In this document: piece by piece, positions 14,977 to 44,250 of the stretch
Position numbering within the stretch: position 1 is the stretch's first letter
How the letters are laid out: each line of letters starts with the position of its first letter
Origin: Chloroflexota bacterium
GTDB lineage: Bacteria; Chloroflexota; Anaerolineae; Epilineales; SHYO01
Direction: 5' to 3'
Assembly: GCA_009692745.1 (NCBI GenBank)
Contig: SHYO01000001.1
Coordinates: 1 to 63,745, forward strand
DNA: 63,745 nucleotides
Made by a program: the position numbers and the translations under genes
Notes under the pieces: model-generated
What the model saw: only the letters and a program-made list of their open reading frames with translations
Databases searched by the model: none
Told to the model about the DNA's origin: nothing

Positions 14977-15003
14977 CCGTATCTTTTCCCTACAACTTTC
15001 GTT
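14977..15003 (+). promoter_or_regulatory. CCGTATC-N16-CGTT motif copy C1 (ECF-type promoter candidate)
   Basis: ggCCGTATCtttt...ttCGTT with an exact 16-nt spacer, 199 nt upstream of the giant gene A ATG. Confidence 0.5.
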
Positions 15004-15102
15004 CTAGCACGTCGAAATACTATAACTATGTCCCTATATTCTTCTGTCCTGGCTATTGTGGATGCGAAGATGAGATTGGCATGAGAAATTCACCTCAGCA
15101 GA

Positions 15103-15129
15103 CCGTATCTAGTAGCGTTTTCTCGCGTT
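15103..15129 (+). promoter_or_regulatory. CCGTATC-N16-CGTT motif copy C2 (ECF-type promoter candidate)
   Basis: gaCCGTATCtagt...cgCGTT with an exact 16-nt spacer, 73 nt upstream of the giant gene A ATG. Confidence 0.5.
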
Positions 15130-15201
15130 CTGGCAGCACGAAGCACCTCCCGTCCTGGCGTGGTGCTGAGTCCCATTTGGCATTAAAGGAGGCCACCGTT
15201 C

Positions 15202-18200
15202 ATGATCCCCTCATCCGGTAAATCGAAGTTGTTTTCTCAAGTCGCTGATTCCGTATCTGCCACCCGGAAGATTTTGGGCCAGTGGAAGCCGCATCTACCA
15301 TCGCGTCGCACGATGTCAAAGATGCTATTTTTGGCTTCCCTGGCTCTGCTTGTTTTAGTGGGGCAGGCGCAGCCCGCTACCCAGGTTCATGCTCAAACAA
15401 ATTTATTCCAAATAATCTGGAGTGCTGACCCTCCGGTTTTTGCAACGGCCGGAAAACCGATCCTGGTCCGGGTGCAGGTCCAGGGTTTCCAAGCTAGCAA
15501 GCATTTTGATACTGCCAAGATTTTTACCGGCAGCGGTGGTCTCCCCTCTGCGTTGGGCACAGGGCCAGGCTTCTCTATTCCAGTCGGTAATTGTACGCCG
15601 GACCTGCCAAACAATGCAGAGACCTGTTCGAATTTCACCATTGAGACAAACGATCAATTTGGTTTCTATATTCTCTATAATATCCCTCCCGGTTGGGTGG
15701 GAGGCACGGATTTATCCCGAGATCTGAACACCTTTTTCCAGGCCCGCGGCGACTTAGCGATAGATTCGAACTATGCCGTGAACGTGGGCGCTTCGGCCGA
15801 CGTGGCCATCACCAAAATCGGCGCCCAACAGGCCCGCGCCGGGCAGCCCTTTACCTACAAGCTCGTGGTAGATAACTATGGCCCGTCGAATGCCCGTAAT
15901 GTGACCATCGAAGATGATATTCTCTCTTCACAGAATGTGACCTTGAATTCGGCGCCGGGTTGTACTGTGACCGGGGCTGGCGCGCAGCGCCATCTAAGCT
16001 GCGCACTAGGCACCATGACACCGAACGAGCGCATTACTATCGATGTGAGCGTGACCTCCAATGTTGATGCCATCATCAACAACACGGCTCAGGTTACGAC
16101 TACTGATCCCGATCCGGTGACCTTCAACAACAGCGCCCAGACGTTCACCGTCGTTTCCGCCGTGGCCGATTTGGCCGTGACCAAGACCAAGCAGAGCCCG
16201 GCCGGCAACCTCACCGCCGGCGGCAATGTCACCTATCGGCTTAGGGTCGACAACAATGGCCCTTCCTCCGCCGAAGGCGTGATCCTGGTAGATACGCTGC
16301 CGGCTTTTGCGCGGAACGTGACCTTCGGCGCCATCAGCGGCGGCGCCGGGTCTTGTATACCGGGCAACACGCCGATTACCCCGGCTACCTGTAACCTGGG
16401 TACCATCGCCAACGCTGGCTTCCGCCAGGTTGACGTCACCTTCCAGGTCGATCCCAGTATTCCCATCGACCCGGCCACCGGCGCTACCCTGTCCAACCAG
16501 GCGCAGGTCTTGAGTAATACTTTCGATCCCGATAACAGCAATAATTCTGACCAAGTCACGACCACCGTGGTGGGCTCTTCCGCCCTGTCGATGACCAAGA
16601 CCAGCGTGCCGGCAACGGTACACGCCGGTGACCTGTTCCACTACGATATCGTGATCAGAAACGCTGGGCCGTCCACGGCTTTTGACACCATCTTCCACGA
16701 TACCATACCCACGACGACCTTCCTGGTACTGAACGTCAGCCTGGCTTCGCCGCCTTTCTCGCCCTTCCCCAGTTGTACCATCGGGGTGGGCAACGGCCAG
16801 ATCGATTGTACCATCGGCGCCCTGGCGCCGGGCGCCACGGTCACCGGGACGATTAACCTGGTGGCCGCGGCCAGCGCCATCCCCGGTACGTACACCAACA
16901 ATGTCTTAGTCACCAGCCGCTCCGGTAGTGCGGTAGCTACTGCCCAAACCACGATCGACCGGCAAGCCGACCTGGAGATTACCAAGTTAGACGTACCCGA
17001 CCCGGCTACCGCCGGCTCGCGCATCGCCTATGCCATCACCGTCATCAACCGCGGTCCCTCCGATGCTCCGAGTGTCACCGTGGCGGATACGTTGCCGGCC
17101 GGCTTCACCTTTGCCGGCAGCACCGAGAACTGTACGGCCGGCGCCCCGGGCTTCAACTGTAACCTGGGCACCATCCCGGCCAACGGCTCGAGGAATTTCC
17201 TGGTCAACGTAGATATCGCCAGCAGTGTGGCGCCGGGTAATTTTACGAATTCCGTCACCACTGCCAGCAGTGCGCCCGAACCGAACCCTGATCCGCACTC
17301 CAACACCGCCACCCAGATCACCACAGTCCTGGGCAGCGCCGAACTGACCATGACCAAGTTGGCCAATCCGGTTGCGACCATCGTGGCGGGCACGAACTTC
17401 ACCTATACCTTGGTGGTCGATAACTTCGGTCCTTCCGACGCGCGCACCGTTACCGTAACTGATCTTCTGCCGCCGGAAGTGACTTTTGTCTCGGCCACAT
17501 CGACCTCCACGCCCGCCTTTATTTGTCCCCCCCCGGCTGGCAATAACCTGACCTGCACCCTCGCCACCCTGGCGGCTAACGGGCGGGCTACCATCGAGGT
17601 CGTGGTCAAGGCGAACCAGAACATTGCCTCGCCTTTCAACCCGATCCGCAACTGCGCCGAAGTGAACGCGGTGACCCCCGATCCCAACCGGGCAAATAAC
17701 CAGGCCTGCGCCTTCGTCACGCCGGCCAGCTTTGCCGACCTGGCGGTCTTCAAGAGCCATACGCCCGAGCCTGTGACGGCCGGCCAGAATATCACCTATA
17801 CCATCCGCGTCACCAATACCGGCCCCAGCGACGCCCACGGCGTGCTGGTGCAGGATATCCTGCCCGCCGGTGTGACCATCGATACCAAGCCGATTTTCTG
17901 CACCACCGAAGTAGTCTGTAACCTGGGCGATATTGCCGTGGGCCAGACGAAGGTCTTAACCATCTCGGTAGCGGCCAGCCAGTTCCTGCCCGCCGGCACC
18001 AAGCTACATAACGTGGCGCGGACCTTCAGCTCCAGCTTTGACCCGAACAACACCAACGATATCTATAACGATGTCGCCAACGTGATTACTACCGCTAACC
18101 TGTCGGCGCGGAAGATCGCCATCCAGCGTAATCAGTTTACTGAGACGATCTGCGGCACGCCCACGGGTTGTACAGTCAATGACATATTTGTCGCTGGCCA

Positions 18201-21200
18201 GACTGTCGAATACCAGATTCTGTTGCGCAACAACGGCCCCTCAGTGGCCCACAACGTCCTGATCAGCGATGTCTTACCGATCAGCACCACGATCGTCAGC
18301 GCCGCTGTGAAGAACCGTTCCGGCTTCTGCCAATTCCAGGCCGGTGGCAACCAGGTGCATTGTAACCTGGGCGATGTGGCGGCGAACCCGGCGCCGGACC
18401 AGGAGATTATCGTCAGCATCAATGTCTTGATCTCGCCTGCCGCGCCCCAGGGTTCCGTCTTGACCAACCGGGCCCGCATCAGCAGCGATACCGGCAATGG
18501 GCCCATCATCCTGCCCGCGCCGCCGAACTTCGATGGCAAATCTGGCGCCGACAGTGTCCTGGCGCCTGATAGCGTGACCTTCTCCTTCCTGGATTTGATC
18601 CTGTCGCTCTTTGTCCAGGCGCAGGCTGACCTGCTCATCATCAAGGCCGATACCGGCGTGCCTGCGACGGCCGGATCCTTCACTACCTACCAATTGTTGG
18701 TGATCAACGCCGGGCCGTCCGATGCCCAGAACGTGGTTATCAACGATACGCTGCCGGTCGGCTTTACCTATGTAGACAGCCCCAGCGACTGTACCGCTAC
18801 CGCGGGAGGCTTCACCTGTAACCTGGGCACCCTTGCCGCGGGCGGCAGCCAGGTTGTGGCTGTAACCGTGAAACTGGATCCCAACGTGGCTGCTGGCAAT
18901 CACACCAACACCGCCACAGTCACCAGCAGCACCAACGATCCCAATGCGGCCAATAATACCGCTACCCAGGTCACCGCGGTGCTAGAAGTGGCCGATCTCT
19001 TCGTGCGCAAGTTTGGCCGCCCGGACCAGATCGTGGTAGCCGGCACGCTGATGACCTACACCATCTATGTGGATAACGTGGGCCCGTCGGACGCCCGCAA
19101 TACCGTAGTCACCGATACGCTTGATCCCGATGTGACCTTCGTCAGCTCCACCCCTGCGCCGAGTACGGTCGGACCCACCGATCCGCTCAACGGGGAAATA
19201 AATTACATCTACAACCTGGGCACTGTGGCTTTCAATACGCGGGCGCAGATCCAGGTGGTCGTGCGGGTGAACCGCAGCGTGGGACCGCCTTTTGACCCGA
19301 TAACCAACCGGGTTGAAGTGCGCAGCACGGCGCAAGATCCCAACCTGGCCAACAACTTTACCGAACGCGTCAACGCCGTGACGGCCCAATCGGATCTATC
19401 GATCAGCAAGACGGCCGAGGGCCAGAACGTACAGAATTCTGGTACCGCACCTGCGCCCATCGCCTTGCAGGCCAACAGCGTAACCGCCGGTACCAACATC
19501 ACCTACACCATCCGCATCACCAACAGCGGTCCGACCGACGCTTACAACGTCTTCATCCAGGACTTTGTACCTCCTGGCGTAGACACGCGCGCGGTCTCCA
19601 TCACGCGCGGTGATGGCCTGCCGGGTACCTGCCAATTTGGCGGCCTGGTGGATGGCAGTGTGCGCTGCAATATCGATACGCTACCTTTCACCACAACCGC
19701 CGGCCTGAACACCGCTACGATGGTGATTAACGGCTTTGTTGCCAGCTCGGTACCCGAAGGCTTCCTGCTCAATAACAACGCCCAGGTATTCAGCGATAAC
19801 CTGGATCCCAACAATTCCAACAACCTTGCCCAGAATCAGACCGTGGTCAACGCCCGCGCTGACCTGGTGATTACCAAGACGGACGATCCTGACCCGGTAA
19901 TTGCCGGCAACATCCTGAAGTACACTATTACCGTGACCAACTCCGGCCCGTCCGATGCGCTCAACGTCGTCGTGACCGACACCCTGCCGGTGGACGGCAA
20001 CGGTGTGGCCCAGGTAGTCTTCGGCAATAGCTCCTTGAAGAATACCTTCGGTGGGGAGCTATGCTCCGCCGATTTCATCCATCCCGAGCGCGTTACCTGT
20101 AACGTCGGTACGCTGACGGCCGGCCAGGTGGTTACTTTCGACATCCTGGTGCTGGTCAAGCCGAATGTGGTGCTGGATGGCGAGACTTTCCACAACATTA
20201 CCAACACGGCTGCCGTCAAGAGTAGCACCATTGATCCGGTGTCCAGCAACAATACTACCACCCAGACCACGAGGGTCGAGGCCCGCGCCGAGCTGACCAT
20301 CCAGAAGGTGGATTCGCCAGATCCAAACGCGGCCGGGTTGCGCGAGACCTACTTGATTAACTTCTCCAACACCGGGCCGTCCACCGCGCGCACCGTAGTG
20401 GTGACCGATACTTTGCCGTTGGGTGTCTTCTACTCCTATTGTTCTCCTGTCGATCCGAACGATATCGTTTCCTGCTCGGTAATTAGCGGCAACGGTGTAA
20501 CGGTACCCCAGGTGGTTCAACTGAACTCCATCAAGCGGGCCAACGTAACGCTCTACCAGAAACCGCCCGCTGGAGAGGAAGACGACCTGGATCCGGGTGA
20601 GAGCTACTCCTTCTTCCTGATTGCCGATGTTTCCCCCGGCTACGTGCTCGACGGTCGTGGCATCACCGATCCCGGTAATTTGTGCCAGGCTGCCTCTGTG
20701 GCTGCCGGCGGCTATCCGCACATCGCCGATAACCGGGCTACTATCACTTCGGAGACGCCGGATCCGCAACCGCTGAATAACTACGATGACGAGTGTACCC
20801 AGATCATCGGTTCCGCCGACCTGTCCATTACCAAGACCGACAGCACCGGGGACTTCCCGCATGGTGACCCATTGGCCCCTGGTGGCACGATTACGTATAC
20901 CATTGTGGTCATCAATAACGGCCCTTCCGATGCTGCCGATGTGCGGGTGCAAGACCAACTGCCCCAGGGTCTGATCCTGAATCCTGCCCTGGTCGTCGTT
21001 ACCGTCAGCAGCCCGCTGATTGATGCACCCACTGCACCCATCATCACCAAGCGTGACGACGGATTGATCACGGTGCTCCTGGGTCGCGTCAACACGTCTT
21101 CGACGATTACCCGTACGAATCCGACTACCGGGGGTGGCGCCACCGGTCCGGGTGGTCCAATTACGATCACCATCGTTACCCGCGTAGCGCTAACCACGCC

Positions 21201-23523
21201 GGCCGGCATACTTACCAACGTGGCTTTGGTAGATACGGTAAAGGATCTGCGTTTCCCCAACCGTACCCGGCCGACGGCTGATCCGAATCTGAACAACAAC
21301 ATTGCCGTGGAAACCACTACCATCCAGATACCGTCCATCAAGGTGAATAAGACCGTGTCGTTCAACGGTGTCTGCCCCGGCACGGACAATCCCGCCGTGT
21401 CTACGCCGAACCAGCCGGTGACTTTCTGCTACGAGATCACCAACACCGGCACCACCTTCTTGGATAATATCTTGGTGATTGACTCCTACAAGACGCGGCA
21501 AGGGACCATCAACTTCTTTGTGGACCTGATCACCTTTGGCGCCGATCCGGGATTGCCGGTTGCTCCTGGTGAGGTCGTCCGCCGCCAGGTGACCCTGCCG
21601 TCACCGTACTTCAGCGACTGCGGCACCAATGTCAACACGGTGTTTGTGATAGCTGATCCGGTGAACTCTGGTCGCACTCGCCTGGTCGATCTGCCTCAAG
21701 TTTTCAATGCTGATGTAGCTACGATCAACGTGCCTTGCGAAGGGGTAGATTACCGGTTGCAGGTACCCATCCTGGACAACAGCACCTGCCAGAGCTGGGT
21801 CACCGTGCAGAACTATGGTAACAAACCCACCAAGGCCATGATGGTCATCTGGGGCCAGCCGGGCTATTGTACACCGCAGTCCACCGGTCCTTTGAAGGTG
21901 GAATGCACCGGCTTGCTGCTCCCCGGTAGTTCCTGGGTCTTTGCCCCCAGCCTGCTGCCGGCCGGGTCCCATAGTGCGGTGGTTTACTCGCTGAACGCTA
22001 CTGACCTGATTCCTTCGGTGAACGGCACCCTGCTGCCCTTCTCCGACGTAGCCTGCCGCGCGCTGTACCAGTATGTGGTCTTCAATGACGATCAATGGTT
22101 TGAGTTTGACTACTCGTACCGCCACCAGGGCATCTACCGTGGTCCTATCGGCAACGCCGGGCAGCAATTGCTGCTGGACTTCGGCGCGCACCAGGGGCAG
22201 CCGATTGCGGTTGAAGTTAACCGCACCTGCCCTGGCGATGTGACCCCGGGCTTCAAGGCCAGCGCCGCCTACACCGGCATCTCGTCGGATATGGAAGGCG
22301 CGCCCGACTTGACCTTCGGTGGTTTCGCCTACTACGTGCCCTTGATCTACACCCAGGGGCAGGGCGGCTACAATACCACCCTCTGGATCCAGAACTCCGG
22401 CGACCAATGCACCTCCGTCGAGATCTACTTCCAGAAGCAGGACAACTGTTTGCACCCGACGATCGGCGAGATCCTGAGCCTGTCGCCGGGGGAGACCATC
22501 GGCTTCGACCCGGCTACGGTGTTGCCGGCGAACCCGCCCTGGCAGGGCAGCGCCTGGATTCGGGCTTCCAAGCCCTTGGGTATCGTGGTAGATGTCCGTG
22601 GTAAGAATATGTTTGGCTCGTATGTGGGTGTGCCGGCCCAGTTGCAGTCGACCTTCAATTCCACGCCGGAGTTTAGCTTCGGTACCGCGGTGAACTACGC
22701 CCCCTTGATCTACCGCGAGTTCAACGGCTGGCAGACGGGCATCCAGGTACAGAACCTGAGCTCGATCACCAACGCCAAGGTCAAGGTCTACTTCGTCGAC
22801 CACACCGGTGGCATCATTACCACAGTCGTCGACTGGATCTGCCCACGCGGCTCGCAGACGTTCTTCTTGCCGGTGATCAACGGGTTGCCGGGGAACTATG
22901 TCGGTGCGGCGCGCATTGAGTCTCAGAACTGGTGGACTCCTGGCGATCCGAGTGTAAAAGCTCCTAATGTGTTGTCAATAGTGAACGTGATTAAGTATGC
23001 CGACCAGAACAGCACCACCACCCCGCTGGAGATGGCGATGTACAACGCCCTACCGGAGTGGAAGAGCTTCGACTGGCAGGTTGGTACTCCTCCCGGTCTG
23101 TTGGGGATGGGCTTGTTAGGTGTGCCGTTGGTGACGAAGGGCGGGCTGAACCAGGTCTACAGCGAGCTGGCGATCCAGAACCTGAACCCGAACCCTGGCT
23201 TCACCGACTTTGCGATCTTCTTCTACGACCAGAACGGGTTACTCGACACGGTCTGCGAGAAGCTGAACGAGAAGCAGGTGGAGTACATCGACCTGTCCTC
23301 GTGGGGCTTCGTGCCCAACGGCTTCAACGGTTCGGTGGTGATCTCGGCCACGCGCACCACGCAGCCTGGTGGCTTCGGCCTGGCGGGGGTGGCGGTCGAG
23401 CGGGTAGGGCGGAGTTTGACCCAACCGCAGCTCCAGGGGGATGAGACCAAGGCGTATGAGATGTTCCCGATCTTCTTCCCCTTCACCTTCCCGGTGACGC
23501 CGACGTGTCCGGGACAACCGTAA
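15202..23523 (+). CDS. Giant secreted DUF11-repeat surface protein A (2773 aa) with shared four-repeat C-terminal region
   Basis: AAAGGAGG 8 nt before the ATG. Hydrophobic signal segment MLFLASLALLVLVG after a 40-aa basic leader. About 13 DUF11/TIGR01451 repeats (ADLxxTK...NxGPSxA...DxLP) and a C-terminal 730 aa homologous to giant B. Confidence 0.9.
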   Translation: MIPSSGKSKLFSQVADSVSATRKILGQWKPHLPSRRTMSKMLFLASLALLVLVGQAQPATQVHAQTNLFQIIWSADPPVFATAGKPILVRVQVQGFQASKHFDTAKIFTGSGGLPSALGTGPGFSIPVGNCTPDLPNNAETCSNFTIETNDQFGFYILYNIPPGWVGGTDLSRDLNTFFQARGDLAIDSNYAVNVGASADVAITKIGAQQARAGQPFTYKLVVDNYGPSNARNVTIEDDILSSQNVTLNSAPGCTVTGAGAQRHLSCALGTMTPNERITIDVSVTSNVDAIINNTAQVTTTDPDPVTFNNSAQTFTVVSAVADLAVTKTKQSPAGNLTAGGNVTYRLRVDNNGPSSAEGVILVDTLPAFARNVTFGAISGGAGSCIPGNTPITPATCNLGTIANAGFRQVDVTFQVDPSIPIDPATGATLSNQAQVLSNTFDPDNSNNSDQVTTTVVGSSALSMTKTSVPATVHAGDLFHYDIVIRNAGPSTAFDTIFHDTIPTTTFLVLNVSLASPPFSPFPSCTIGVGNGQIDCTIGALAPGATVTGTINLVAAASAIPGTYTNNVLVTSRSGSAVATAQTTIDRQADLEITKLDVPDPATAGSRIAYAITVINRGPSDAPSVTVADTLPAGFTFAGSTENCTAGAPGFNCNLGTIPANGSRNFLVNVDIASSVAPGNFTNSVTTASSAPEPNPDPHSNTATQITTVLGSAELTMTKLANPVATIVAGTNFTYTLVVDNFGPSDARTVTVTDLLPPEVTFVSATSTSTPAFICPPPAGNNLTCTLATLAANGRATIEVVVKANQNIASPFNPIRNCAEVNAVTPDPNRANNQACAFVTPASFADLAVFKSHTPEPVTAGQNITYTIRVTNTGPSDAHGVLVQDILPAGVTIDTKPIFCTTEVVCNLGDIAVGQTKVLTISVAASQFLPAGTKLHNVARTFSSSFDPNNTNDIYNDVANVITTANLSARKIAIQRNQFTETICGTPTGCTVNDIFVAGQTVEYQILLRNNGPSVAHNVLISDVLPISTTIVSAAVKNRSGFCQFQAGGNQVHCNLGDVAANPAPDQEIIVSINVLISPAAPQGSVLTNRARISSDTGNGPIILPAPPNFDGKSGADSVLAPDSVTFSFLDLILSLFVQAQADLLIIKADTGVPATAGSFTTYQLLVINAGPSDAQNVVINDTLPVGFTYVDSPSDCTATAGGFTCNLGTLAAGGSQVVAVTVKLDPNVAAGNHTNTATVTSSTNDPNAANNTATQVTAVLEVADLFVRKFGRPDQIVVAGTLMTYTIYVDNVGPSDARNTVVTDTLDPDVTFVSSTPAPSTVGPTDPLNGEINYIYNLGTVAFNTRAQIQVVVRVNRSVGPPFDPITNRVEVRSTAQDPNLANNFTERVNAVTAQSDLSISKTAEGQNVQNSGTAPAPIALQANSVTAGTNITYTIRITNSGPTDAYNVFIQDFVPPGVDTRAVSITRGDGLPGTCQFGGLVDGSVRCNIDTLPFTTTAGLNTATMVINGFVASSVPEGFLLNNNAQVFSDNLDPNNSNNLAQNQTVVNARADLVITKTDDPDPVIAGNILKYTITVTNSGPSDALNVVVTDTLPVDGNGVAQVVFGNSSLKNTFGGELCSADFIHPERVTCNVGTLTAGQVVTFDILVLVKPNVVLDGETFHNITNTAAVKSSTIDPVSSNNTTTQTTRVEARAELTIQKVDSPDPNAAGLRETYLINFSNTGPSTARTVVVTDTLPLGVFYSYCSPVDPNDIVSCSVISGNGVTVPQVVQLNSIKRANVTLYQKPPAGEEDDLDPGESYSFFLIADVSPGYVLDGRGITDPGNLCQAASVAAGGYPHIADNRATITSETPDPQPLNNYDDECTQIIGSADLSITKTDSTGDFPHGDPLAPGGTITYTIVVINNGPSDAADVRVQDQLPQGLILNPALVVVTVSSPLIDAPTAPIITKRDDGLITVLLGRVNTSSTITRTNPTTGGGATGPGGPITITIVTRVALTTPAGILTNVALVDTVKDLRFPNRTRPTADPNLNNNIAVETTTIQIPSIKVNKTVSFNGVCPGTDNPAVSTPNQPVTFCYEITNTGTTFLDNILVIDSYKTRQGTINFFVDLITFGADPGLPVAPGEVVRRQVTLPSPYFSDCGTNVNTVFVIADPVNSGRTRLVDLPQVFNADVATINVPCEGVDYRLQVPILDNSTCQSWVTVQNYGNKPTKAMMVIWGQPGYCTPQSTGPLKVECTGLLLPGSSWVFAPSLLPAGSHSAVVYSLNATDLIPSVNGTLLPFSDVACRALYQYVVFNDDQWFEFDYSYRHQGIYRGPIGNAGQQLLLDFGAHQGQPIAVEVNRTCPGDVTPGFKASAAYTGISSDMEGAPDLTFGGFAYYVPLIYTQGQGGYNTTLWIQNSGDQCTSVEIYFQKQDNCLHPTIGEILSLSPGETIGFDPATVLPANPPWQGSAWIRASKPLGIVVDVRGKNMFGSYVGVPAQLQSTFNSTPEFSFGTAVNYAPLIYREFNGWQTGIQVQNLSSITNAKVKVYFVDHTGGIITTVVDWICPRGSQTFFLPVINGLPGNYVGAARIESQNWWTPGDPSVKAPNVLSIVNVIKYADQNSTTTPLEMAMYNALPEWKSFDWQVGTPPGLLGMGLLGVPLVTKGGLNQVYSELAIQNLNPNPGFTDFAIFFYDQNGLLDTVCEKLNEKQVEYIDLSSWGFVPNGFNGSVVISATRTTQPGGFGLAGVAVERVGRSLTQPQLQGDETKAYEMFPIFFPFTFPVTPTCPGQP
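22222..23523 (+). repeat. 1.3-kb dispersed direct repeat, copy 1 (3' end of giant gene A)
   Basis: Collinear without indels with 42810-44111. Sampled 60-nt blocks show roughly 90-98 percent identity, against about 70 percent immediately upstream. Confidence 0.85.
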
Positions 23524-25798: not shown

Positions 25799-25845
25799 TG
25801 GTTTTCCCTCTCTAGATATATCATACAAGGCAGATGGCCGGATAG

Positions 25846-25873: not shown

Positions 25874-25982
25874 GGATGGTACATCGGTCATGACAGACTA
25901 CCATTGAGTGCTGGTGCAGGGGCCAGGTGTCCTCGCTTATCAATTTCTTAGCTGAGATTATCTCTCACTTATGCCTATCAGC

Positions 25983-34150: not shown

Positions 34151-34177
34151 CCGTATCTTTAACCAGACCTTCACGTT
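34151..34177 (+). promoter_or_regulatory. CCGTATC-N16-CGTT motif copy B (ECF-type promoter candidate)
   Basis: agCCGTATCtttaaccagaccttcaCGTT, 320 nt upstream of giant gene B ATG 34497. Confidence 0.5.
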
Positions 34178-37400: not shown

Positions 37401-40400
37401 CAGACAACCTTGCCCCCAGCCGGGGCCCACAGCTTTGACCTCTTCGTCAAGGTCTCCCCGAGCTTCATCGGCGTGATTACCGATACAGCCACCACCAGCA
37501 GCCCGGTCTTTGACCCCATCCTGGCTAACAATACCTTCGTCCAGGATACGCGCGTCACCGATCAGGCCGACCTGAGTATTACCAAGATCGGCGATCCCGA
37601 TGTTACCGTGGTGGCGGGCGAGCTGCTAACCTATACCATTACCGTGGACAACTACGGTCCCTCCGATGCCCGCAACCTGGTGCTCACCGACACGCTGGAT
37701 CCTAAGGTCACTTTCGTTTCCGCTGCGACCTCAGCGCCCTCCACCCGCACCGGTCCCAATCCCTTGGTGTGGAGTTTCACCAATCGTCTAGCAGCCGGTG
37801 GTCGTATCTCCGTCACGGTGGTGGTGCGGGCTAACAGCGATATCGGCCGGCCTTTCGATGCCTTCAGCAACCGGGTGGAGGTGCGCAGCTCGGCCTTTGA
37901 CCCCGACCTGACCAACAATGCTGCCACACTCTTCACCGCGCCAGTGAGCTTCGCCGATTTGGCGGTGACTAAGGCGGAGATCGGCCAGGTAGCCAATGTG
38001 CCTGGCCCCGGCATCAGCCTGCTGCCCAACCGGGTGACCGCCGGCCTGACCCTGACCTACACCCTGAAGATCACGAACAACGGTCCCTCGTCGGCCGAGA
38101 ACGTGGTCTTAATTGACCGCCTGCCGCCGGGGCTCACAGTCCTACCTGGTGGGATTACCACTTCGCCGGGCGGCAGTTGCACGGCGGGAACACCTGGCCA
38201 GGCGGCGGATAAGCTGACTTGCGGCTTCGGCACCCTGGCAGCGGGCGCCAGCGCGGCCATTACCATCACTGCGACGGTCGATCCGGCCGTGGTCGATGGC
38301 ACCATCCTGGCGAATGATGCCCAGGTTTACAGCGATGCCTTCGATCCCAACAATACTAACAACTATGTCACCAACCTGACCCGCGTCGATGCCGTGGCCG
38401 ATGTCTCCGTGACCAAGACCGACTTCCCTGACCCGGTGATTGCCGGCCAGCAGTTGGAGTACGAGATCATAGTGGAGAATGCCGGTCCCTCGGTGTCGCG
38501 GGATGTGGTGATTGAGGATTTCTTGCCGTTTGGATTGGGCGTGCTCAGGGTTAACATGACCAACAATCCCGCCGGCTTCTGCAGTATTCGCACTACCCCG
38601 AACGAGGTGATAGACTGCACCTTGGGAGACCTCCCGCCGGGCAAGCGCCTGGTGATCGTTGTAACCGGCCTGGTCGACCCGCGTGTCCCTGAAGGGGCGG
38701 TACTGACCAATGACGTGCAGGTCTTCAATCCCAATAGTAATGGGACCGCCGATCCTGATTTGACCAACAACGAGGCTATCGAGGATACCGACGTCCTGGC
38801 TGTGGCCGACCTGGTTATCCAGAAATCCGACAAACCGGAAGTGGTCTACGCCGGGACCCAGAAGAAATACACGGTGACGGTTACCAACAAGGGTCCCTCG
38901 GACGCGCTAAACGTGGTCGTCACCGACACGTTGCCGGGCGGCGCCGGCTACCAGGTGGACACCGCCTCCTGTGATGTGGATGCGGCGCACCCGGCCTATG
39001 AAGCCATTATGAAGGGGCCCAACGAGTCACCTCCCGTTACCAACACTATCGCCAGCGGCCTGGCTTCCTTTATCCTGGATAAGAATACGCGGCAGCTTTC
39101 CTACTTCGTCGCGGTAACCGATATTACCCGCACCATTACCGCCGGTCACATCCATACAGGCACGGCGGGCGTGGCGGGTGGGGTCCTGATCCCCATCCCC
39201 AACGCCACTTCTCTGAGCCCCGGCAATCCCATCTTCGGCACGCTGGATCTGAGCGGGGGGGACAAGGACGCGCTGGTAAACAACTTGCTGGCTGGCGGGG
39301 GCGGCTTCTATATTAATTTCCATACCGCCGCGCACCCCGGCGGCGAAATCCGCGGCCAGATATATCCCGCGCCGGCGCGCTCCCTGGGGTGCCCATTGGG
39401 CACTATCCCGGCCGGTGAGACGCGCACCTTCGACATTTTCGCCCTGGTGCTGCCTGAGGCCGTGCCTGGTACGATTATCACCAATACCGCCACCGTCATC
39501 AGCACCGTCTTCGATCCCAACCTGGCCAACAATACCAGCGATACCTACAGCGGCATCGCTATTGCCAAGAACCTGGTGTTGGGGCAGGCTGACTTGCGGG
39601 TTACCAAATTTGGCAAGCCCGACGGCGACGTCCGCGCTGGGACCAACCTGACCTACACCATCATCGTGGATAACCTGGGCACCGGTTTCGCTCACAACGT
39701 GGTTTTGACGGAGCTATTGCAATCCAGCAATGTCTTCACCATGACCTCCATCACCTCCGACCGTCCTGCTATCTGTAGTCCGACAGCGCCGCCGGACCTG
39801 CGCGCCCAGGAACGGCTGCAGTTCCAGTGCCAGCTCCAGGAGCCGCTGGAAGTCCTGACGCCCAATGCCTCCGGCCGCTGGATTATCACCGTGGTGGTAC
39901 ACGGCGACCAGACCCAGGACATCAACAACTTTGCCATCGTCACCAGCGAGGACTTCGATCCCGACACTACCAACAACAAAGCCTTCGTGGAGCACAACAT
40001 CACCGACGTCTCCGATCTACGGATTACCAAGGCCGAGATCGGCGAGGTCCAGGTGAACGGCCAACCCGGCGGCGTAGTGACCCTGGTGCCCAACCAGGTG
40101 ACAGCCGGCCGTGACCTCACCTATACCCTCTCCATCCATAACTTCGGGCCGTCGATTGCCGAGAACGTGATCGTCTACGACCGGCTGCCGCCGGGCATTG
40201 TGCTGACCGGTTATGAGAGCAGCGCCGGGTTCTGTACTACCGGCACCCCCGGCAATCCGCAGGACCAGATGAAGTGCGGCGTGGGCACGCTCTACGTCAA
40301 CTATGACGCCACGATCACCATTACGGCGCACGTGCTGCCGTCGCTGGACCCCGGCACAATTCTGGAGAACGACGCCTTCGTCATCTCCGATATCTTCGAC

Positions 40401-43400
40401 CCGACCAATGCCAATAACTACGCCACCAACTTGACCACCGTCAGCACCTGGGCCGACCTGAGCATAAGCAAGAGCGCCCGTGGCGACAATATCACCGGCT
40501 ACGATACCGCCACGGGTCAGTTTACCAAGACCCAGTTGGACAACCAGGTGACGGCCGGGGAATTGCTGCAATATACCCTGGTGATCACCAACGGCGGGCC
40601 GTCGGATGCCCGCGGGGTGATCCTGACCGACACCTTGCCGGCCCCGGCCGGGCCGCTGGCCATAGTCAACTTCGTCAGCGCCGATGGCGCCCTGTGCCGC
40701 CAGGATCCGGTGGACCGCAACGTGGTAGTCTGTACCCTGGACACCATCCCGGTGGGGGGGAAACGCACGGTACATATCGTGGTGCGGGTGGACCCGACGG
40801 TGCCCAACGGCACAGTGATCACGAATAACGTGGTGGTATCCGCTGCCACCCGGGACCCGTTCCTGGCTAACAACAGCGCTACCAACGCTACCACCGTGAA
40901 TGCGGTGGCCGATGTATGGATTACCAAGGTAGATGTACCGGCCGAGGCGCGGCTGGATAAGCCCTTTGAGCCGGATCAGGCAGTGGCGGGGAAAGAGCAT
41001 CGCTACCAGATCACGTTCGGCAACAACGGCATCTCGGCAGCTCAGAATGTGGTGATTACCGATGTGCTGGATGTGAAGCAAGCCGCTATCCTGGGGGAGA
41101 CCCTGGTGCGCTGCGAGCCGATCGACCCGGATGACCAGGTGACCTGCAGCCAGGCGGCCGGCATCGTGACGGTCACCGGTTTCAAGCACCGCAACGAGAC
41201 GGTGCTGCCGGGAGCGTTGGCGCCGGCTAGTAACTTCAGATTCTATCTGGTGACGAAGGTGGACTCCGGCTACGTGCTGGATGCGGCGGCGGGCAAGTTC
41301 CTGGCGGAGCTGCCCGGCTGGGGACCGATCGCCAGCGATACGGCCTTTATTTCCAGCACTACCACGGATGTGCGCCCCCAGAACAACCGGGACACGGAAC
41401 AGACGGAGATCATCGCCGAGGCCGACCTGGTGATCGCCAAGACCGACAGCACCGGCGCTTTCCTGGCCGGCGACCCGGTGGTCCGCGGTGGGGAGATCCT
41501 CTATACCATTACGGTGACGAATACCGGCCCGTCGGACGCGGCCCAGGTCTACGTGGTAGACTGGCTGCCGGCCGGGCTGATCCTGGACCCGAACCTGGTG
41601 ACGGTGACGGTGCCGGCGGGCAGCGTGGTGGTGGAGAAGCGGGATGACGGGCGGATTACCGTGATCTTGGGGAACGACCTCAGCAACGCCGGGACCCCTC
41701 AGTCCGGGCGCATCAACACCGGGCATACCTACAGCTTCACCATCCGGGTGCGGGTGGCGAACACAGCCCCTTGTGGCGCGGTCTTGCAGAACCGGGCGAC
41801 GGTGGAGACGAGGCGCAACGATACCATCTGGCCGCCGGTGAACGGCTTCGCGCGCACGCCCACGCTGGATCCCAACCCGGCGAACAACACCGTGGTGGAA
41901 GGGACGCTGATCGTCTGCCCGTCGATCCAGGTGAATAAGACAGTCAGCTTCGACGGCACCTGCCCGGGCACGGATAACATCGCCGTAGCCAAGCCGGGTG
42001 TGCCGATCACCTTCTGCTACCAGATCAAGAACACGGGAGATACCTTCCTGGACACGATCCGCATCACTGACACCTTCACGACGCGCCAGGGGACGCAGAT
42101 CATCTTCACCGACCTGATCACCTTTGGCCTGGACGTCGGCTTGCCGATTGCCCCCGGGGAGACGGTGACGCGCTCGGTGCGTATTCCCTCGCTGTACTTC
42201 GCCGCCTGCGGCACGAACATCAACCAAGTGATCGTGACGGCTATCCCGACGAACTCGGGGCGCACGGTGCTGCTGAGCGTGCCGGGGGTGTCGGCTAAGG
42301 ACGAGGCGCGGGTGGATGTACCCTGTGAGGGGGTGGACTTCCGGCTGCAGTTGCCGATATTGGACAACAGCACCTGCCAGAGTTACATCACGATCCAGAA
42401 CTACGGCGACGCGCCCACCAAGGCGATGGTGGTGATCTGGGGCCAGCCGGGCTACTGCCCACCTCAAGCCACCGGGCCGATCAAGATCGAGTGTACCGGG
42501 CTGCTGCTGCCGGGGAGCTCGTGGGTGGTGGCGCCTTCCCACATGCCGGCCGGCGCCCACAGTGCTGTGGTTTATTCCATGAACGCAGTGGACAAGGTAC
42601 GGGACAGCCGGGGCAACCTGGTGCCCTTCTCCGACATCGCTTGCTATTCGCTCTACCAGAATATTGTCTTCAATGACGCCGAGTGGTACCTCTTCGACCA
42701 GGCCTATCGCAACCAGGGTATATACTATGGTCCCGTTGGTGTTAATGGCAGCCAATTGCAACTGGATTTCGGCGCCCACCAGGGGGAACCTCTGGCTGTG
42801 GAAGTTGATCGCACTTGCCCCGGCGATGTGACCCCCGGCTTCAAGGCCAGCGCCGCCTACACCGGCATCTCGTCGGATATGGAGGGCGCGCCTGACCCGA
42901 CCTTCGGCGGGTATGCCTACTACGTGCCCTTGATCTACACCCAGGGGCAGGGCGGCTACAATACCACCCTCTGGATCCAGAACTCCGGCGACCAGTGCAC
43001 CTCCGTCGAGATCTACTTCCAGAAGCAGGACAACTGTCTGCACCCGACGATCGGCGAGATCCTGACCCTGGCTCCCGGCGAGACCATCGGCTTCGACCCG
43101 GCCAGCGTTTTGCCGGCGAACCCGCCCTGGCAGGGCAGCGCCTGGGTGCGGGCTTCCAAGCCGTTGGGTGTGGTGGTGGATGTGCGCGGTAAGAACATGT
43201 TCGGCTCCTACGTAGGGGTGCCGGCCCAGTTGCAGACTACCTTTAACGGTACGCCGGAGTTCAGCTTTGGCACCGCGGTGAACTACGCGCCCTTGATCTA
43301 CCGCGAGTATAACGGCTGGCAGACGGGCATCCAGGTACAGAACCTGAGCTCGGTCACTAACGCCAAGGTCAAGGTCTACTTCGTCGATCACACCGGCGGC

Positions 43401-44111
43401 ATCATCGCCACGGTGGTCGACTGGATCTGCCCGCGCGGCTCGCAGACCTTCTTCTTGCCGGTGATCAATGGGTTGCCGGGGAACTATGTGGGGGCGGCGC
43501 GCATCGAGTCTCAGAACTGGTGGACTCCTGGCGATCCGAGTGTACAAGCTCCTAATGTGTTGTCGGTGGTGAACCTGGTGAAGTACGCCGACCAGAGCAG
43601 CACGACCACCCCGTTGGAGATGGCGATGTACAACGCCCTGCCGGAGTGGAAGAGCTTCGACTGGCAGATCGGCAAGCCGCCGGGCCTGCTGGGGATGGGC
43701 TTGTTGGGTGTGCCGCTGGTGTCAAAGGGCGCGCTGAATCAGATCTACAGCGAGCTTGCGATCCAGAACCTGAACCCGAACCCTGGCTTCACCGACTTTG
43801 CGATCTTCTTCTACGACCAGAACGGGTTACTCGACACGGTCTGCGAGAAGCTGAACGAGAAGCAGGTGGAGTACATTGATCTGGCCTCGTGGGGCTTCGT
43901 GCCGAACGGCTTCAACGGGTCGGTGGTGATCTCAGCTACGCGCACGACGCAGCCTGGTGGCTTCGGCCTGGCGGGGGTGGTGGTGGAGCGGATAGGGCGG
44001 AGTTTGACCCAACCGCAGCTCCAGGGGGACGAGACGAAGGCGTATGAGATGTTCCCCATGTTCTTCCCCTTCACCTTCCCGGTGACGCCGACGTGTCCGG
44101 GACAACCTTAG
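34497..44111 (+). CDS. Giant secreted DUF11-repeat surface protein B (3204 aa) with N-terminal jelly-roll-like domain, embedded CHRD domain and shared four-repeat C-terminal region
   Basis: GGGAGGA 9 nt before the ATG. Hydrophobic segment MLSRLAAGLVLIILALAAPA after a 43-aa basic leader. NGGFEAGSLAPWT...LIDNVKL domain at 34864-35490, about 15 DUF11 repeats, and a C-terminus nearly identical to giant A. Confidence 0.9.
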   Translation: MPTRYPSQKPLGQTSDAGKSLFARSFGSAGTWVRKQSAGRGFAMLSRLAAGLVLIILALAAPAGRAVNAAGPSQPAEVVIHSIGGMLYPSLDLSQPEQLVEPLPAARPPASPAPSGVAALTQAGIPNGGFEAGSLAPWTSSGSANHVEILTAANFTPPVGNPTEGTHFVLLCTGPATVTGAGQGNIDGDLSNTPEFDTSILTQVLNLTVSDVPAILSFDWIFLTAERASALDPFDDIFRVQLNNSNILVGSRPGGISPFPDINANAPGAIVSSPPGGNSTNGCNFPIRTNFSKFSTIITDPGTYTLQFLVADQGDANVDSGLLIDNVKLSPELDVSVTKSATPDPAVAGQPLVYDLTVKVDGIGTATGVVVTDTLPAEVDYLTDTSNGACIFNPGPRELVCNLGDILGNTSRSFKIDTRVKEGARAGGALKVTNSLVVTSISPDRDLSNNTFNLQTILRDQADLKISKVSKPDTNVRAGDLFTYTIFVDNYGPSAARNVVVTDTILSSGAWQFVSCTPLETPQGAIPGSLSCGPNNTLNLLIATINPLPPLSPQNPGRYTLQVVLRANQAQDVNNAVRVTSDTPDTDTSNNQATDFIHVDAVADLKMTKIGTDIGTNPDGNPFSVLAGQSVQWTIVISNAGPSTSQNVVVVDRLPAGLVKGSIFALATTPQPGGGQCNLGTPSDFQQPLRCQLGNLLPGQIATVIIQADIDPSYVANQVNTQFANYLPNDAFLTTDTLDPDTRNNIVYDALVRVDALANLIATKVDQPDPVRAGKPLAYIITISNTGPSTAENVVLSDTLPANVTFQSASIVNGNSLQSCTFSAGAQSVYCSLGNLPPAPPTVTVLINTLVNIDAPAGPITNIANVTSDTNDGNPANNTNISAVTQVLTEADLDIINSVTDTPDPVVAGTILKYHIHVINHGPSQAPTPTITNTFTFAGNPAGAGFVTFAGATELCSPVGVDQIVCNLQTTLPPAGAHSFDLFVKVSPSFIGVITDTATTSSPVFDPILANNTFVQDTRVTDQADLSITKIGDPDVTVVAGELLTYTITVDNYGPSDARNLVLTDTLDPKVTFVSAATSAPSTRTGPNPLVWSFTNRLAAGGRISVTVVVRANSDIGRPFDAFSNRVEVRSSAFDPDLTNNAATLFTAPVSFADLAVTKAEIGQVANVPGPGISLLPNRVTAGLTLTYTLKITNNGPSSAENVVLIDRLPPGLTVLPGGITTSPGGSCTAGTPGQAADKLTCGFGTLAAGASAAITITATVDPAVVDGTILANDAQVYSDAFDPNNTNNYVTNLTRVDAVADVSVTKTDFPDPVIAGQQLEYEIIVENAGPSVSRDVVIEDFLPFGLGVLRVNMTNNPAGFCSIRTTPNEVIDCTLGDLPPGKRLVIVVTGLVDPRVPEGAVLTNDVQVFNPNSNGTADPDLTNNEAIEDTDVLAVADLVIQKSDKPEVVYAGTQKKYTVTVTNKGPSDALNVVVTDTLPGGAGYQVDTASCDVDAAHPAYEAIMKGPNESPPVTNTIASGLASFILDKNTRQLSYFVAVTDITRTITAGHIHTGTAGVAGGVLIPIPNATSLSPGNPIFGTLDLSGGDKDALVNNLLAGGGGFYINFHTAAHPGGEIRGQIYPAPARSLGCPLGTIPAGETRTFDIFALVLPEAVPGTIITNTATVISTVFDPNLANNTSDTYSGIAIAKNLVLGQADLRVTKFGKPDGDVRAGTNLTYTIIVDNLGTGFAHNVVLTELLQSSNVFTMTSITSDRPAICSPTAPPDLRAQERLQFQCQLQEPLEVLTPNASGRWIITVVVHGDQTQDINNFAIVTSEDFDPDTTNNKAFVEHNITDVSDLRITKAEIGEVQVNGQPGGVVTLVPNQVTAGRDLTYTLSIHNFGPSIAENVIVYDRLPPGIVLTGYESSAGFCTTGTPGNPQDQMKCGVGTLYVNYDATITITAHVLPSLDPGTILENDAFVISDIFDPTNANNYATNLTTVSTWADLSISKSARGDNITGYDTATGQFTKTQLDNQVTAGELLQYTLVITNGGPSDARGVILTDTLPAPAGPLAIVNFVSADGALCRQDPVDRNVVVCTLDTIPVGGKRTVHIVVRVDPTVPNGTVITNNVVVSAATRDPFLANNSATNATTVNAVADVWITKVDVPAEARLDKPFEPDQAVAGKEHRYQITFGNNGISAAQNVVITDVLDVKQAAILGETLVRCEPIDPDDQVTCSQAAGIVTVTGFKHRNETVLPGALAPASNFRFYLVTKVDSGYVLDAAAGKFLAELPGWGPIASDTAFISSTTTDVRPQNNRDTEQTEIIAEADLVIAKTDSTGAFLAGDPVVRGGEILYTITVTNTGPSDAAQVYVVDWLPAGLILDPNLVTVTVPAGSVVVEKRDDGRITVILGNDLSNAGTPQSGRINTGHTYSFTIRVRVANTAPCGAVLQNRATVETRRNDTIWPPVNGFARTPTLDPNPANNTVVEGTLIVCPSIQVNKTVSFDGTCPGTDNIAVAKPGVPITFCYQIKNTGDTFLDTIRITDTFTTRQGTQIIFTDLITFGLDVGLPIAPGETVTRSVRIPSLYFAACGTNINQVIVTAIPTNSGRTVLLSVPGVSAKDEARVDVPCEGVDFRLQLPILDNSTCQSYITIQNYGDAPTKAMVVIWGQPGYCPPQATGPIKIECTGLLLPGSSWVVAPSHMPAGAHSAVVYSMNAVDKVRDSRGNLVPFSDIACYSLYQNIVFNDAEWYLFDQAYRNQGIYYGPVGVNGSQLQLDFGAHQGEPLAVEVDRTCPGDVTPGFKASAAYTGISSDMEGAPDPTFGGYAYYVPLIYTQGQGGYNTTLWIQNSGDQCTSVEIYFQKQDNCLHPTIGEILTLAPGETIGFDPASVLPANPPWQGSAWVRASKPLGVVVDVRGKNMFGSYVGVPAQLQTTFNGTPEFSFGTAVNYAPLIYREYNGWQTGIQVQNLSSVTNAKVKVYFVDHTGGIIATVVDWICPRGSQTFFLPVINGLPGNYVGAARIESQNWWTPGDPSVQAPNVLSVVNLVKYADQSSTTTPLEMAMYNALPEWKSFDWQIGKPPGLLGMGLLGVPLVSKGALNQIYSELAIQNLNPNPGFTDFAIFFYDQNGLLDTVCEKLNEKQVEYIDLASWGFVPNGFNGSVVISATRTTQPGGFGLAGVVVERIGRSLTQPQLQGDETKAYEMFPMFFPFTFPVTPTCPGQP
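38997..39363 (+). other. CHRD domain inserted in the DUF11 array of giant B
   Basis: ITAGHIHTGTAGVAGGVLIPI ... FYINFHTAAHPGGEIRGQI matches the CHRD signature (aHIH.G..G..G.v ... YvN.HT...p.GeIRGQ). Confidence 0.7.
42810..44111 (+). repeat. 1.3-kb dispersed direct repeat, copy 2 (3' end of giant gene B)
   Basis: Partner of 22222-23523, with the same length and no indels. Confidence 0.85.
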
Positions 44112-44217
44112 GGGATGACGCCCGGCAAAGCCGGGAGGGTGGCAGGGTGAGGGGGTGGCAAGTAATGTGCCGAACCCCTAGTTGGGACGGTGACCCTCAC
44201 CAAAAGTGAAATGACAA

Positions 44218-44250
44218 GGGCCGGTGGCTGGAAGTTACAGCTACCGGCCT
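44218..44250 (+). terminator. Terminator-like hairpin after giant gene B
   Basis: gggccggtggctg-gaagtta-cagctaccggcct, a 13-bp stem with G.U positions and a weak T-tract. Confidence 0.35.

Follow-up and report, generated by a model that had tools for sequence, protein, structure and literature searches.

The 63,745-bp contig SHYO01000001.1 of a Chloroflexota metagenome-assembled genome (MAG; locus tags EXR62_*), referred to in its entire length as the window, carries six long open reading frames (ORFs) within positions 15202-44111. Homologs of these genes are found in the same order in about ten loci from MAGs of Anaerolineae, at 30-60% protein identity to the window, and copies of one bipartite promoter motif precede five of the six. 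On balance, the locus is likely to be a conserved Anaerolineae module for extracellular fibre or adhesin proteins, transcribed within the regulon of an extracytoplasmic function (ECF) sigma factor. Confidence in the individual protein contacts proposed below is far less than in this general statement; all the assembly steps, as well as the extracellular localisation, are deduced from domain families.

The six ORFs had been singled out by a reading of the bare sequence, made without database searches (the sequence-only reading), and all of them were found at the coordinates it gave, according to the ORF listing of the window:

15202-23523, + strand: G1, 2773 aa; about 13 DUF11 domains and a C-terminal module
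24230-25891, - strand: S74 fibre gene, 553 aa; trimeric fibre with S74 chaperone; probable start at 25801
26123-27610, - strand: P2, 495 aa; family without a name; probable start at 27550
27632-28966, - strand: P1, 444 aa; family without a name
29692-34008, + strand: Ig protein, 1438 aa; 10 Big_3_5 repeats, DUF11, dockerin and cohesin-like domain
34497-44111, + strand: G2, 3204 aa; about 15 DUF11 domains, CHRD and a C-terminal module

Pfam and NCBIfam scans of the six module proteins found no enzyme, transporter or regulator domain, in agreement with that reading. An N-terminal hydrophobic segment, judged by eye, is present in all of them. The signal peptides ascribed earlier to the whole set are to be taken with reserve for G1, G2 and the Ig protein, where a charged leader of 30-45 aa lies ahead of the hydrophobic segment, which could be an uncleaved signal or membrane anchor.

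Conservation of the block

Loci were collected from P1 homologs lying on long contigs and from a scan of one genome per species, and almost all of them are labelled Anaerolineae. The ORFs of each locus were compared by BLAST with segments of the six window proteins, and each locus was judged as far as its contig reaches. The arrangement common to L001/L007, L003, L004, L005, L006, L010, L011, L012 and L013 comprises a G2-like giant and an Ig gene, a divergent set of one to four P1/P2-family genes with an S74 gene, and a convergent gene for a protein carrying the C-terminal module. The loci of this L001-L013 set represent at least three clades, 43-61% identical to the window.

The degree of conservation was evaluated for each component. 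The N-terminal 600 aa of the G2-like proteins are 45-51% identical to the window within this set, and 40-51% over all related loci. Ig orthologs, present in L001, L003, L004, L005, L010, L011, L012 and L013, are 42-49% identical over their C-terminal 378 aa, and S74 orthologs, located at the same position, are 45-52% identical. At the G1 position, the C-terminal module (about 30% identical) follows N-terminal parts that vary between loci, being composed either of DUF11 or of LTD/Big_1/Invasin_D3 domains.

DUF11 has been renamed CLIPPER; it is a CnaA-like domain, in which an intramolecular isopeptide bond stabilises the stalks of fibrillar adhesins (PMC12617251). In the more distant P1-family loci (L016/L017, L020/L021, L107/L108 and L109; profile E-values from 1e-14 to 1e-49), two to three P1-family genes are in each case divergent from a giant with CLIPPER and CHRD domains and a G2-type N-domain. 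In all loci long enough to judge, the core consists of P1/P2-family genes in tandem and, in divergent orientation, a giant of the G2 type with CLIPPER(DUF11) and CHRD domains. Genes flanking the block differ from locus to locus, so that the block, conserved in order across divergent genomes, is a discrete unit.

The sequence-only reading had proposed that the genes form one functional unit and are not a chance assortment of adhesins, and had named the conservation of the gene neighbourhood in other genomes as the way to check it. The P1/P2 family, G2-type giants and Ig cohesin proteins do co-occur: about ten further loci of Anaerolineae carry homologs in the same order, and these loci represent at least five divergent lineages.

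Promoter motif and ECF regulon

The motif CCGTATCT-N15-CGTT is present in five exact copies in the window, compared with none in 100 shuffles. All five are located upstream of module genes, in sense orientation:

14977-15003, + strand: ECF-type motif, distal copy before G1, exact match
15103-15129, + strand: ECF-type motif, proximal copy before G1, exact match; absent from the sequence-only reading
29239-29265, - strand: ECF-type motif before P1-P2, exact match
29314-29340, + strand: ECF-type motif before the Ig gene, exact match; conserved at the orthologous position
34151-34177, + strand: ECF-type motif before G2, exact match

Five of the six genes are therefore preceded by one bipartite motif, as had been proposed, with two copies before G1 and none before the S74 gene. 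The P1 and Ig copies are arranged back-to-back, 48 nt apart, and the same layout is found in L003, L004 and L010. With the same spacing, the motif recurs between the orthologous genes of L001, L003, L004, L006 and L010, and nowhere else in these loci, while variants of it are found in L012, L016, L107 and L109. Tandem copies also precede the Ig ortholog in L001, and in most relatives G2 starts 45-70 nt after the Ig gene, without a promoter of its own. A scan of the window for sigma-70 and terminator consensus sequences gave nothing decisive on operon structure. An interpretation of the motif as a -35-like box followed by a TATAAT -10 element was rejected: the window copies have no TATAAT after CGTT, and only CCGTATCT and CGTT are conserved.

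Public metagenome contigs were scanned by using the pattern GGCCGTATCT-N15-CGTTATA, and 85 stretches were obtained. In six of them (L025, L031, L077, L085, L089 and L090) the first downstream gene is, by BLAST, an ECF sigma gene, and its ORF is 71 nt away from the motif in L090 and 0-31 nt away in the other five. Three of these genes were confirmed by Pfam (Sigma70_r2, Sigma70_r4_2, Sigma70_ECF); FecR/DUF5667 proteins are encoded downstream of them. Nine more copies of the motif lie directly before FecR/DUF5667 anti-sigma-like genes. Since the motif stands directly upstream of ECF sigma/anti-sigma operons, it is read as the promoter recognised by an ECF sigma that controls its own operon, and the sigma dependence of the module is predicted on this ground. 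The three confirmed ORFs (L025 452-1027, L077 348-902 and L085 6274-6840) begin 0-11 nt after the motif, so that their transcripts would be leaderless, or nearly so.

Other genes preceded by the motif include BTAD-AAA-TPR (SARP-like) regulators, Flg_new_2 proteins with signal peptides and a CARDB protein, as well as, among the metagenome stretches, DUF11 giants, C-terminal-module proteins and Ig-protein orthologs. In L026 (4800-10766), L076 and L095 the motif precedes a gene for a secreted protein of 1989 aa, which has an S8 subtilase, a beta-helix and DUF11 as well as a dockerin at its C-terminus (Dockerin_1, E 1.1e-7); dockerin-bearing enzymes therefore exist in the regulon. From the genes found downstream of the motif, the module appears to belong to a larger ECF regulon, rich in secreted proteins, and to have no dedicated switch. 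No cognate ECF sigma gene was found within the window by domain scans, and the sigma factor controlling the module would be encoded elsewhere in the genome. The co-regulation suggested by the sequence-only reading is accordingly retained in a weaker form: the motif is real, conserved and of ECF type, but it is also found on a sigma/anti-sigma operon, on SARP-like regulators and on unrelated secreted proteins.

Two further observations concern the leaders of module genes. Between the ECF promoter and the ATG of the Ig gene, five perfect tandem 20-nt units are found (29516-29617), with the hairpin GCTGAG-TACC-CTCAGC. A further copy of the unit belongs to the P1 leader, with an inverted pair in the stretch separating the two (sites 29068-29083, 29380-29420 and 54969-54984). 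A 16-mer of the unit has 8 matches in the window against 0.02 expected, and the unit is absent from the orthologous leaders of other MAGs. The array could be an operator array, a series of RNA hairpins or a slippage-prone repeat. The P1-like leaders of some relatives (L001 9457-10000, L003 7770-8461, L010 7699-8211 and L013 5248-5700) contain a strong TTGACA-N17-TATAAT promoter after the ECF motif, and a conserved hairpin, CGTGCGAGAGGCACG, just before the ribosome-binding site; neither of the two is found in the window.

The giants and their C-terminal module

The two giants had been described as DUF11 proteins, and this was confirmed by Pfam: DUF11 (PF01345) matches 13 stretches of G1 (E 3.8e-205) and 15 stretches of G2 (E 1.4e-209), in both cases above the gathering score. 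A crude regular expression for a Lys/Asp/Asn triad pattern (K...NxGPS...D...N) matches 11 of the G1 repeats and 5 in G2; such a pattern would fit a Lys-Asn isopeptide bond. The other domains of the giants are the following:

34848-35495, + strand: lectin-like N-domain of G2, residues 118-333
39000-39362, + strand: CHRD domain of G2, by Pfam
21652-23520, + strand: C-terminal module of G1, about 620 aa, beta-sandwich array
42237-44108, + strand: C-terminal module of G2, beta-sandwich module that closes the protein

The N-domain of G2 resembles choice-of-anchor L (NF038133) weakly, with matches in five of six orthologs (best E 8e-6) that are under the family cut-off.

The last 623 aa or so of G1 and G2 are 86% identical, and the corresponding DNA reaches 91% identity over 300 nt (22165-22464 compared with 42753-43052). 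The near-identical stretch spans 21730-23520 in G1 and 42318-44108 in G2, whereas orthologs in other genomes are just 30-51% identical, which suggests that gene conversion, or a duplication, took place recently in this genome.

The C-terminal module has no match in Pfam. By homology search, at least 355 related proteins were retrieved (44-69% identity), whose names suggest Anaerolineae, Caldilineae and Ardenticatenales. In these proteins the module is found either alone (about 600 aa) or C-terminal to varied passengers, including S8 peptidase, proprotein-convertase P-domain, CarboxypepD_reg, SdrD_B, LTD, PPC and CLIPPER. Three further copies are present in the same MAG, for a total of at least five; a 3.9-kb contig of this MAG carries a C-terminal-module gene with no ECF motif upstream. 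What had been noted as a shared unnamed C-terminal region is best described, on these homologs, as a Chloroflexota-wide C-terminal domain without a Pfam model; the lack of a name stands, while its occurrence throughout the phylum, on proteases and other proteins, means that it is not specific to the module.

The structure of the C-terminal module was predicted with AlphaFold2 (AF2) from a 40-sequence alignment. The model is a compact all-beta body, with a pLDDT of 85 and a pTM of 0.88. Foldseek returned single-sandwich matches only, to TM1070 (TM 0.67, one sandwich) and to macroglobulin MG domains. No whole-domain fold match was found in the PDB or in a viral library (whole-domain TM at most 0.18), and comparison with PDB sequences gave nothing beyond a likeness to a single beta-sandwich or jelly-roll. 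Because the module closes many different secreted passengers, it may serve for attachment or integration; its distribution is that expected of an attachment, sorting or integration device.

The same data can be read in another way, by taking the C-terminal module as the subunit of a lattice or layer, so that the locus would be an envelope-layer or sheath module, in which G1 and G2 are layer subunits bearing stalks, and P1/P2 and the Ig protein are associated with the layer. The abundance of the module, its high conservation across classes, its compact multi-sandwich body and its occurrence as stand-alone secreted proteins or behind varied passengers would all fit, and a lattice-like protein layer, of a composition that is not known, has been described in Litorilinea (PMC13319060). 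The link of the module to that layer is, however, conjectural, and its fold matches are generic beta-sandwiches. Moreover, the P1/P2 family follows the G2-type giant and not the C-terminal module in general: the contexts of the two are different, and the family of the module is much larger than the 433 P1/P2 matches. A layer is therefore rather unlikely, and the sheath mentioned in the sequence-only reading is not backed by any result of this analysis. A fibre or adhesin module, with the C-terminal module as its envelope end, is preferred.

The Ig-repeat protein and the S74 fibre

The following features were identified in the Ig and S74 proteins:

33283-33453, + strand: dockerin of the Ig protein, two DxNxDxxxD loops, Dockerin_1
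33529-34005, + strand: cohesin-like domain of the Ig protein, weak Pfam Cohesin and PDB profile matches
25592-25696, - strand: dockerin-type calcium loop of the S74 protein, conserved CDVNRDxxIDVxD
about 24857-25384, - strand: UspA1/YadA-head-like trimeric beta-roll of the S74 protein, profile match to 3pr7_A
24233-24631, - strand: S74 intramolecular chaperone and coiled coil, Peptidase_S74

The 10 Big_3_5 repeats of the Ig protein (Pfam, E 4e-148) are followed by one DUF11 domain, starting at 32869 (Pfam, E 2.1e-14). In an alignment of nine orthologs, the C-terminus is composed of this DUF11, two DxNxDxxxD calcium loops, found at residues 1199 and 1234, and a conserved domain of about 160 aa. 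Dockerin_1 (PF00404) matches all nine orthologs, with a best E of 7.8e-5; the copy in the window reaches 14.4 bits, the cut-off being 22.9. The last domain has Cohesin (PF00963) as its sole recurrent Pfam family, found in seven of the nine orthologs (best E 0.002), at 16.7 bits against a cut-off of 24.1. A trimmed profile of this end was compared with the PDB, and three chains only were obtained at E up to 10, all of them cohesins (5nrm_A, 1g1k_A and 2vn5_A; E 0.008-0.018 over 120-130 aligned residues). The last domain is probably a divergent cohesin, with all scores under the family cut-off.

In the S74 protein, a signal peptide, the calcium loop, the beta-roll and the S74 chaperone with its coiled coil follow each other in this order. 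Peptidase_S74 (PF13884) matches residues 421-472 (E 2e-10, 41.2 bits against a cut-off of 22), with the coiled coil after them and the beta-roll before them. The shaft matches the UspA1 head 3pr7_A with a profile E of 1.2e-20, and the protein matches the tail fiber family phrog_1980 (E 8e-13), the sole PHROG match among the six proteins. The N-terminal dockerin-type loop is conserved and single, corresponding to half a dockerin.

Presence and absence of these features were then compared among loci. In 8 loci the S74 gene occurs together with an Ig protein that has the dockerin and cohesin tail, and 4 distant lineages have neither; in the latter the Ig protein, where present, stops directly after DUF11. 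This co-variation is as expected if the S74 fibre docks on the Ig tail, and supports such a putative binding. The sequence-only reading had proposed a dockerin-like plus cohesin-like end for the Ig protein, a dockerin-bearing trimeric S74 fibre and, from these, a cohesin/dockerin complementarity. The two loops with their Dockerin_1 matches, the S74 chaperone with its UspA1-like head and the matching presence and absence agree with it; the cohesin below the family thresholds and the half dockerin of the fibre leave the complementarity qualified.

The same tail could suggest a degradative scaffold similar to a cellulosome, in which the Ig protein would be a mini-scaffoldin recruiting the dockerin enzymes of the regulon through its cohesin, and the giants would tether the complex to substrates. 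Besides the dockerin and cohesin-like end, the motif-preceded subtilase-dockerin protein of L026, L076 and L095 is of the type that such a scaffold would recruit. Yet the module includes no enzyme, in the window or in its orthologs, there is just one cohesin-like domain, and the co-variation of the cohesin tail is with the S74 fibre instead of an enzyme. We consider this explanation unlikely, and retain the fibre or adhesin module, in which the tail would receive the S74 fibre.

The P1/P2 family

P1 and P2 are paralogs, 35% identical, with C-terminal regions of about 130 aa that are nearly invariant and end in WKLAYARFRKAYREAVRP. The gap between the two genes is 21 nt, and they are therefore probably transcribed as one operon. 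Both proteins start with a signal peptide, after which come two helical domains, each preceded by a Pro/Thr-rich linker; the second of these domains holds six invariant Cys. As each contains 7 Cys (about 1.5%), of which 6 are invariant across the family, the earlier description as paralogous Cys-rich proteins of an unknown family is correct for the paralogy and for the absence of Pfam and NCBIfam matches, while "Cys-rich" is overstated.

The family includes 65 close homologs, and its profile has 433 matches among 1.84 billion representative proteins. No meaningful match was found for P1/P2 in Pfam, NCBIfam, PHROGs or PDB sequences, and ten distant members of the P1 family gave nothing informative against Pfam. 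The AF2 model of P1 is all-helical, with a pLDDT of 61, and its fold has no significant neighbour in the PDB, where generic helical bundles are found at TM below 0.3. Members of the family stand beside a G2-type giant in every locus looked at, with a copy number ranging between 1 and 4; four tandem genes are found in L008 (231-6556, an Anaerolineae contig) and three in L109. A role of P1/P2 as anti-sigma factors was considered and rejected, as the hydrophobic segment is at the extreme N-terminus and there is no cytoplasmic domain.

These data also bear on the possibility that the locus is a loose island of independent adhesins, clustered as neighbours under a general "secretome" promoter and forming no complex. 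Such an island would account for the presence of the ECF motif before many unrelated secreted proteins, for the block flanks that differ among genomes, and for the variable N-terminal part at the G1 position. It would not account for an order and orientation kept at just 30-50% protein identity, for a P1/P2 family found beside G2-type giants only, or for the co-variation of S74 with the dockerin and cohesin tail, and it is quite improbable. An origin of the S74 gene and its neighbours from a phage or tailocin, as receptor-binding proteins of a prophage or phage-tail remnant, may be dismissed as very improbable: it draws on the phrog_1980 match and the phage-type chaperone, but the other five proteins have no PHROG match, the window contains no capsid, tail, integrase or terminase genes and no tRNA, its flanks are housekeeping genes, the block is found in different chromosomal contexts in many MAGs, and the S74 shaft resembles the head of a bacterial trimeric adhesin.

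Proposed assembly

In the explanation that we prefer, a conserved fibre or adhesin module under ECF control, an envelope or extracytoplasmic signal would be sensed by an anti-sigma factor of the FecR/DUF5667 type, and the ECF sigma thereby released would transcribe G1, P1-P2, the Ig gene and G2. G1 and G2 would form long CLIPPER stalks of the isopeptide type, roughly 50-60 nm in length at about 3.7 nm per domain, as in the filament protein GhlA (see below). G2 would present its lectin-like head at the N-terminus, and the C-terminal module of about 600 aa would be, in both giants, the end attached to, or integrated into, the cell envelope. The S74 protein would fold into a trimeric UspA1-like beta-roll fibre, aided by its C-terminal chaperone, which in characterised S74 proteins is cut off after folding. 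Its N-terminal calcium loop may plug into the cohesin-like domain of the Ig protein, which would thus be a one-cohesin scaffold, and whose own dockerin may link to another Ig copy or to a further partner. More speculatively, P1 and P2 would form a secreted helical heteromer, which assembles, caps or anchors the G2-type giant.

Several points weigh against this explanation. The cohesin match of the Ig protein is under the Pfam threshold and the "dockerin" of the S74 protein is a single loop; the co-variation of the two could stem from a single evolutionary gain. The ECF motif is absent before the S74 gene, a terminator-like hairpin follows P2, and the motif, being common to many unrelated secreted proteins, does not alone tie the six genes together. 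The P1 model is of moderate confidence and without structural relatives. The C-terminal module is also found as stand-alone proteins, which suits a structural subunit equally well, and the N-terminal segment of the giants could be an uncleaved membrane anchor, in which case the C-terminal module would be distal. The full statement is accordingly offered as a tentative and rather doubtful one: a composite appendage, particular to Anaerolineae and deployed on demand by an ECF sigma, in which CLIPPER stems would bear trimeric UspA1-like fibres at their side or tip by way of a cohesin-dockerin joint. P1/P2, as a new class of secreted helical factors, would assemble or anchor the stems, and the C-terminal module would be the general means by which filamentous Chloroflexota fix proteins into their non-membrane outer layer.

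Filamentous Chloroflexota are abundant in sediments, soils and wastewater sludge; their envelope is multilayered and lacks a classical outer membrane, and few of the proteins that build or decorate it are known (PMC13319060). The locus provides a defined gene set, in which the two giants are accompanied by a scaffold, a trimeric fibre and a pair of proteins from a new family. The ECF motif, together with the sigma/anti-sigma candidates from relatives, offers a handle for inducing the module genes. Two uncharacterised families, the 600-aa C-terminal module, for which a confident model is available, and P1/P2, are made accessible to study, and with all these, fibre assembly and protein attachment in Chloroflexota would become directly testable. 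The Ig protein is a probable further case of cohesin-dockerin use outside cellulose degradation. Should the mechanism be wrong, a conserved adhesin island would be left, useful for annotation and unsurprising.

Flanking genes and other features of the window

The flanks of the module are as given by the sequence-only reading, with MutL/MutS genes and an MNT-HepT ORF on the left and a decayed isocitrate dehydrogenase gene on the right. The latter is a 114-aa ORF (44926-45270, + strand), which covers just the first 90 or so positions of the isocitrate/isopropylmalate dehydrogenase profile (E 2.5e-7) and is, by this partial match, regarded as a gene fragment. MNT and HepT are normally encoded as two separate toxin-antitoxin genes; in the window a single 278-aa ORF (14026-14862, + strand) joins a Polbeta MNT-type nucleotidyltransferase (residues 31-111) to a HepT RNase (residues 156-271).

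At 394-4200, 11-14 kb upstream of the module, an HtrA-like protease (Trypsin_2 and PDZ), a LuxR-type response regulator and an M50 site-2 protease are encoded. Site-2 proteases often process anti-sigma factors. These genes were dropped as candidate partners of the module, as they are not conserved beside it elsewhere.

Downstream, a class A penicillin-binding protein (PBP) with transglycosylase and transpeptidase domains (48120-50921, + strand) is directly followed by a 2205-aa bacterial alpha-2-macroglobulin with six Big_5 repeats (50943-57560, + strand). The pairing of these two genes is already known, and the present case is in a Chloroflexota genome. Rfam and tRNA scans of the window gave no matches. 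G1 and the S74 gene are convergent, and the spacer that separates them contains a 139-nt direct repeat, in two copies that are 95% identical (23826-23964 and 23983-24121); each copy holds GCGGATAA three times, and the repeat has no Rfam match.

Comparison with known systems

The closest described case is GhlA of Litorilinea aerophila (Caldilineae), which forms polar, extracellular "grappling-hook-like" filaments about 180 nm long. GhlA is a 6596-aa protein with 49 DUF11 domains, a three-stranded stem and an N-terminal hydrophobic stretch, suggested to be a membrane anchor; the stem bears protruding protein densities that are unassigned (PMC13319060). Like G1 and G2, it is a giant secreted protein from the same phylum, in which an N-terminal hydrophobic segment is followed by DUF11/CLIPPER domains in tandem, and the unassigned densities would fit accessory proteins. 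Compared by the published description of GhlA, G1 and G2 are half its size, with about 13-15 DUF11 domains against 49. Accessory genes and regulation are not described for GhlA (PMC13319060), while the present module has both conserved neighbours and an ECF motif.

G1, G2 and the Ig protein share with the CLIPPER adhesins bona fide PF01345 domains, many of the repeats showing the Lys...Asp...Asn pattern that would fit the isopeptide triad. The published adhesins are single-gene systems with known anchors, such as OmpA-like domains and sortase or archaeosortase signals (PMC12617251). No known cell-surface anchor motif was found in G1 and G2; their candidate anchor is the new 600-aa module, and their genes lie within a conserved multi-gene block.

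The grappling hook of Bacteroidota is built from GhpA, which has its hook at the N-terminus, a stem of Ig repeats and, at the C-terminus, a domain of the type IX secretion system (T9SS) (bioRxiv 10.1101/2024.01.29.577165). In Aureispira its gene cluster includes dedicated anchoring proteins, GhpB/C. However, GhpA is a heptamer with a T9SS C-terminal domain and the outer-membrane anchors PorP/PorE, whereas Chloroflexota have neither T9SS nor a classical outer membrane, and the GhpA system is unrelated in sequence both to P1/P2 and to the C-terminal module.

With the non-cellulosomal cohesin-dockerin systems of the type I fold (1g1k, 2vn5, 5nrm) the Ig protein shares a dockerin with two calcium loops and a domain of about 160 aa that aligns end-to-end with cohesins. 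It differs from them in its sub-threshold scores, in the absence of enzymes, in having one candidate partner with a single loop and in carrying both modules on one polypeptide. The S74 protein combines a shaft homologous to the UspA1 beta-roll of the UspA1/YadA heads with a chaperone like that of phage S74 fibres of the endosialidase type; it has neither an autotransporter anchor nor a phage context, and its N-terminus has a dockerin-type loop instead of a domain for attachment to a virion or membrane.

The promoter motif resembles ECF/FecR-DUF5667 regulons in its bipartite form, its fixed 15-nt gap, its CGT-containing -10 element and the autoregulated sigma operon. The common ECF consensus -35 element holds an AAC core, which is missing from the -35 element of the module, CCGTATC.

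The sequence-only reading had called the module undescribed. This holds for the conserved multi-gene block, less so for its giants, as DUF11 giants of Chloroflexota are known to form filaments (PMC13319060) and CLIPPER stalks are known as well (PMC12617251). As far as gene content can tell, the locus would stand apart from the known appendages by its shorter giants, the new C-terminal module, the scaffold and fibre pair, the P1/P2 proteins and the predicted ECF control.

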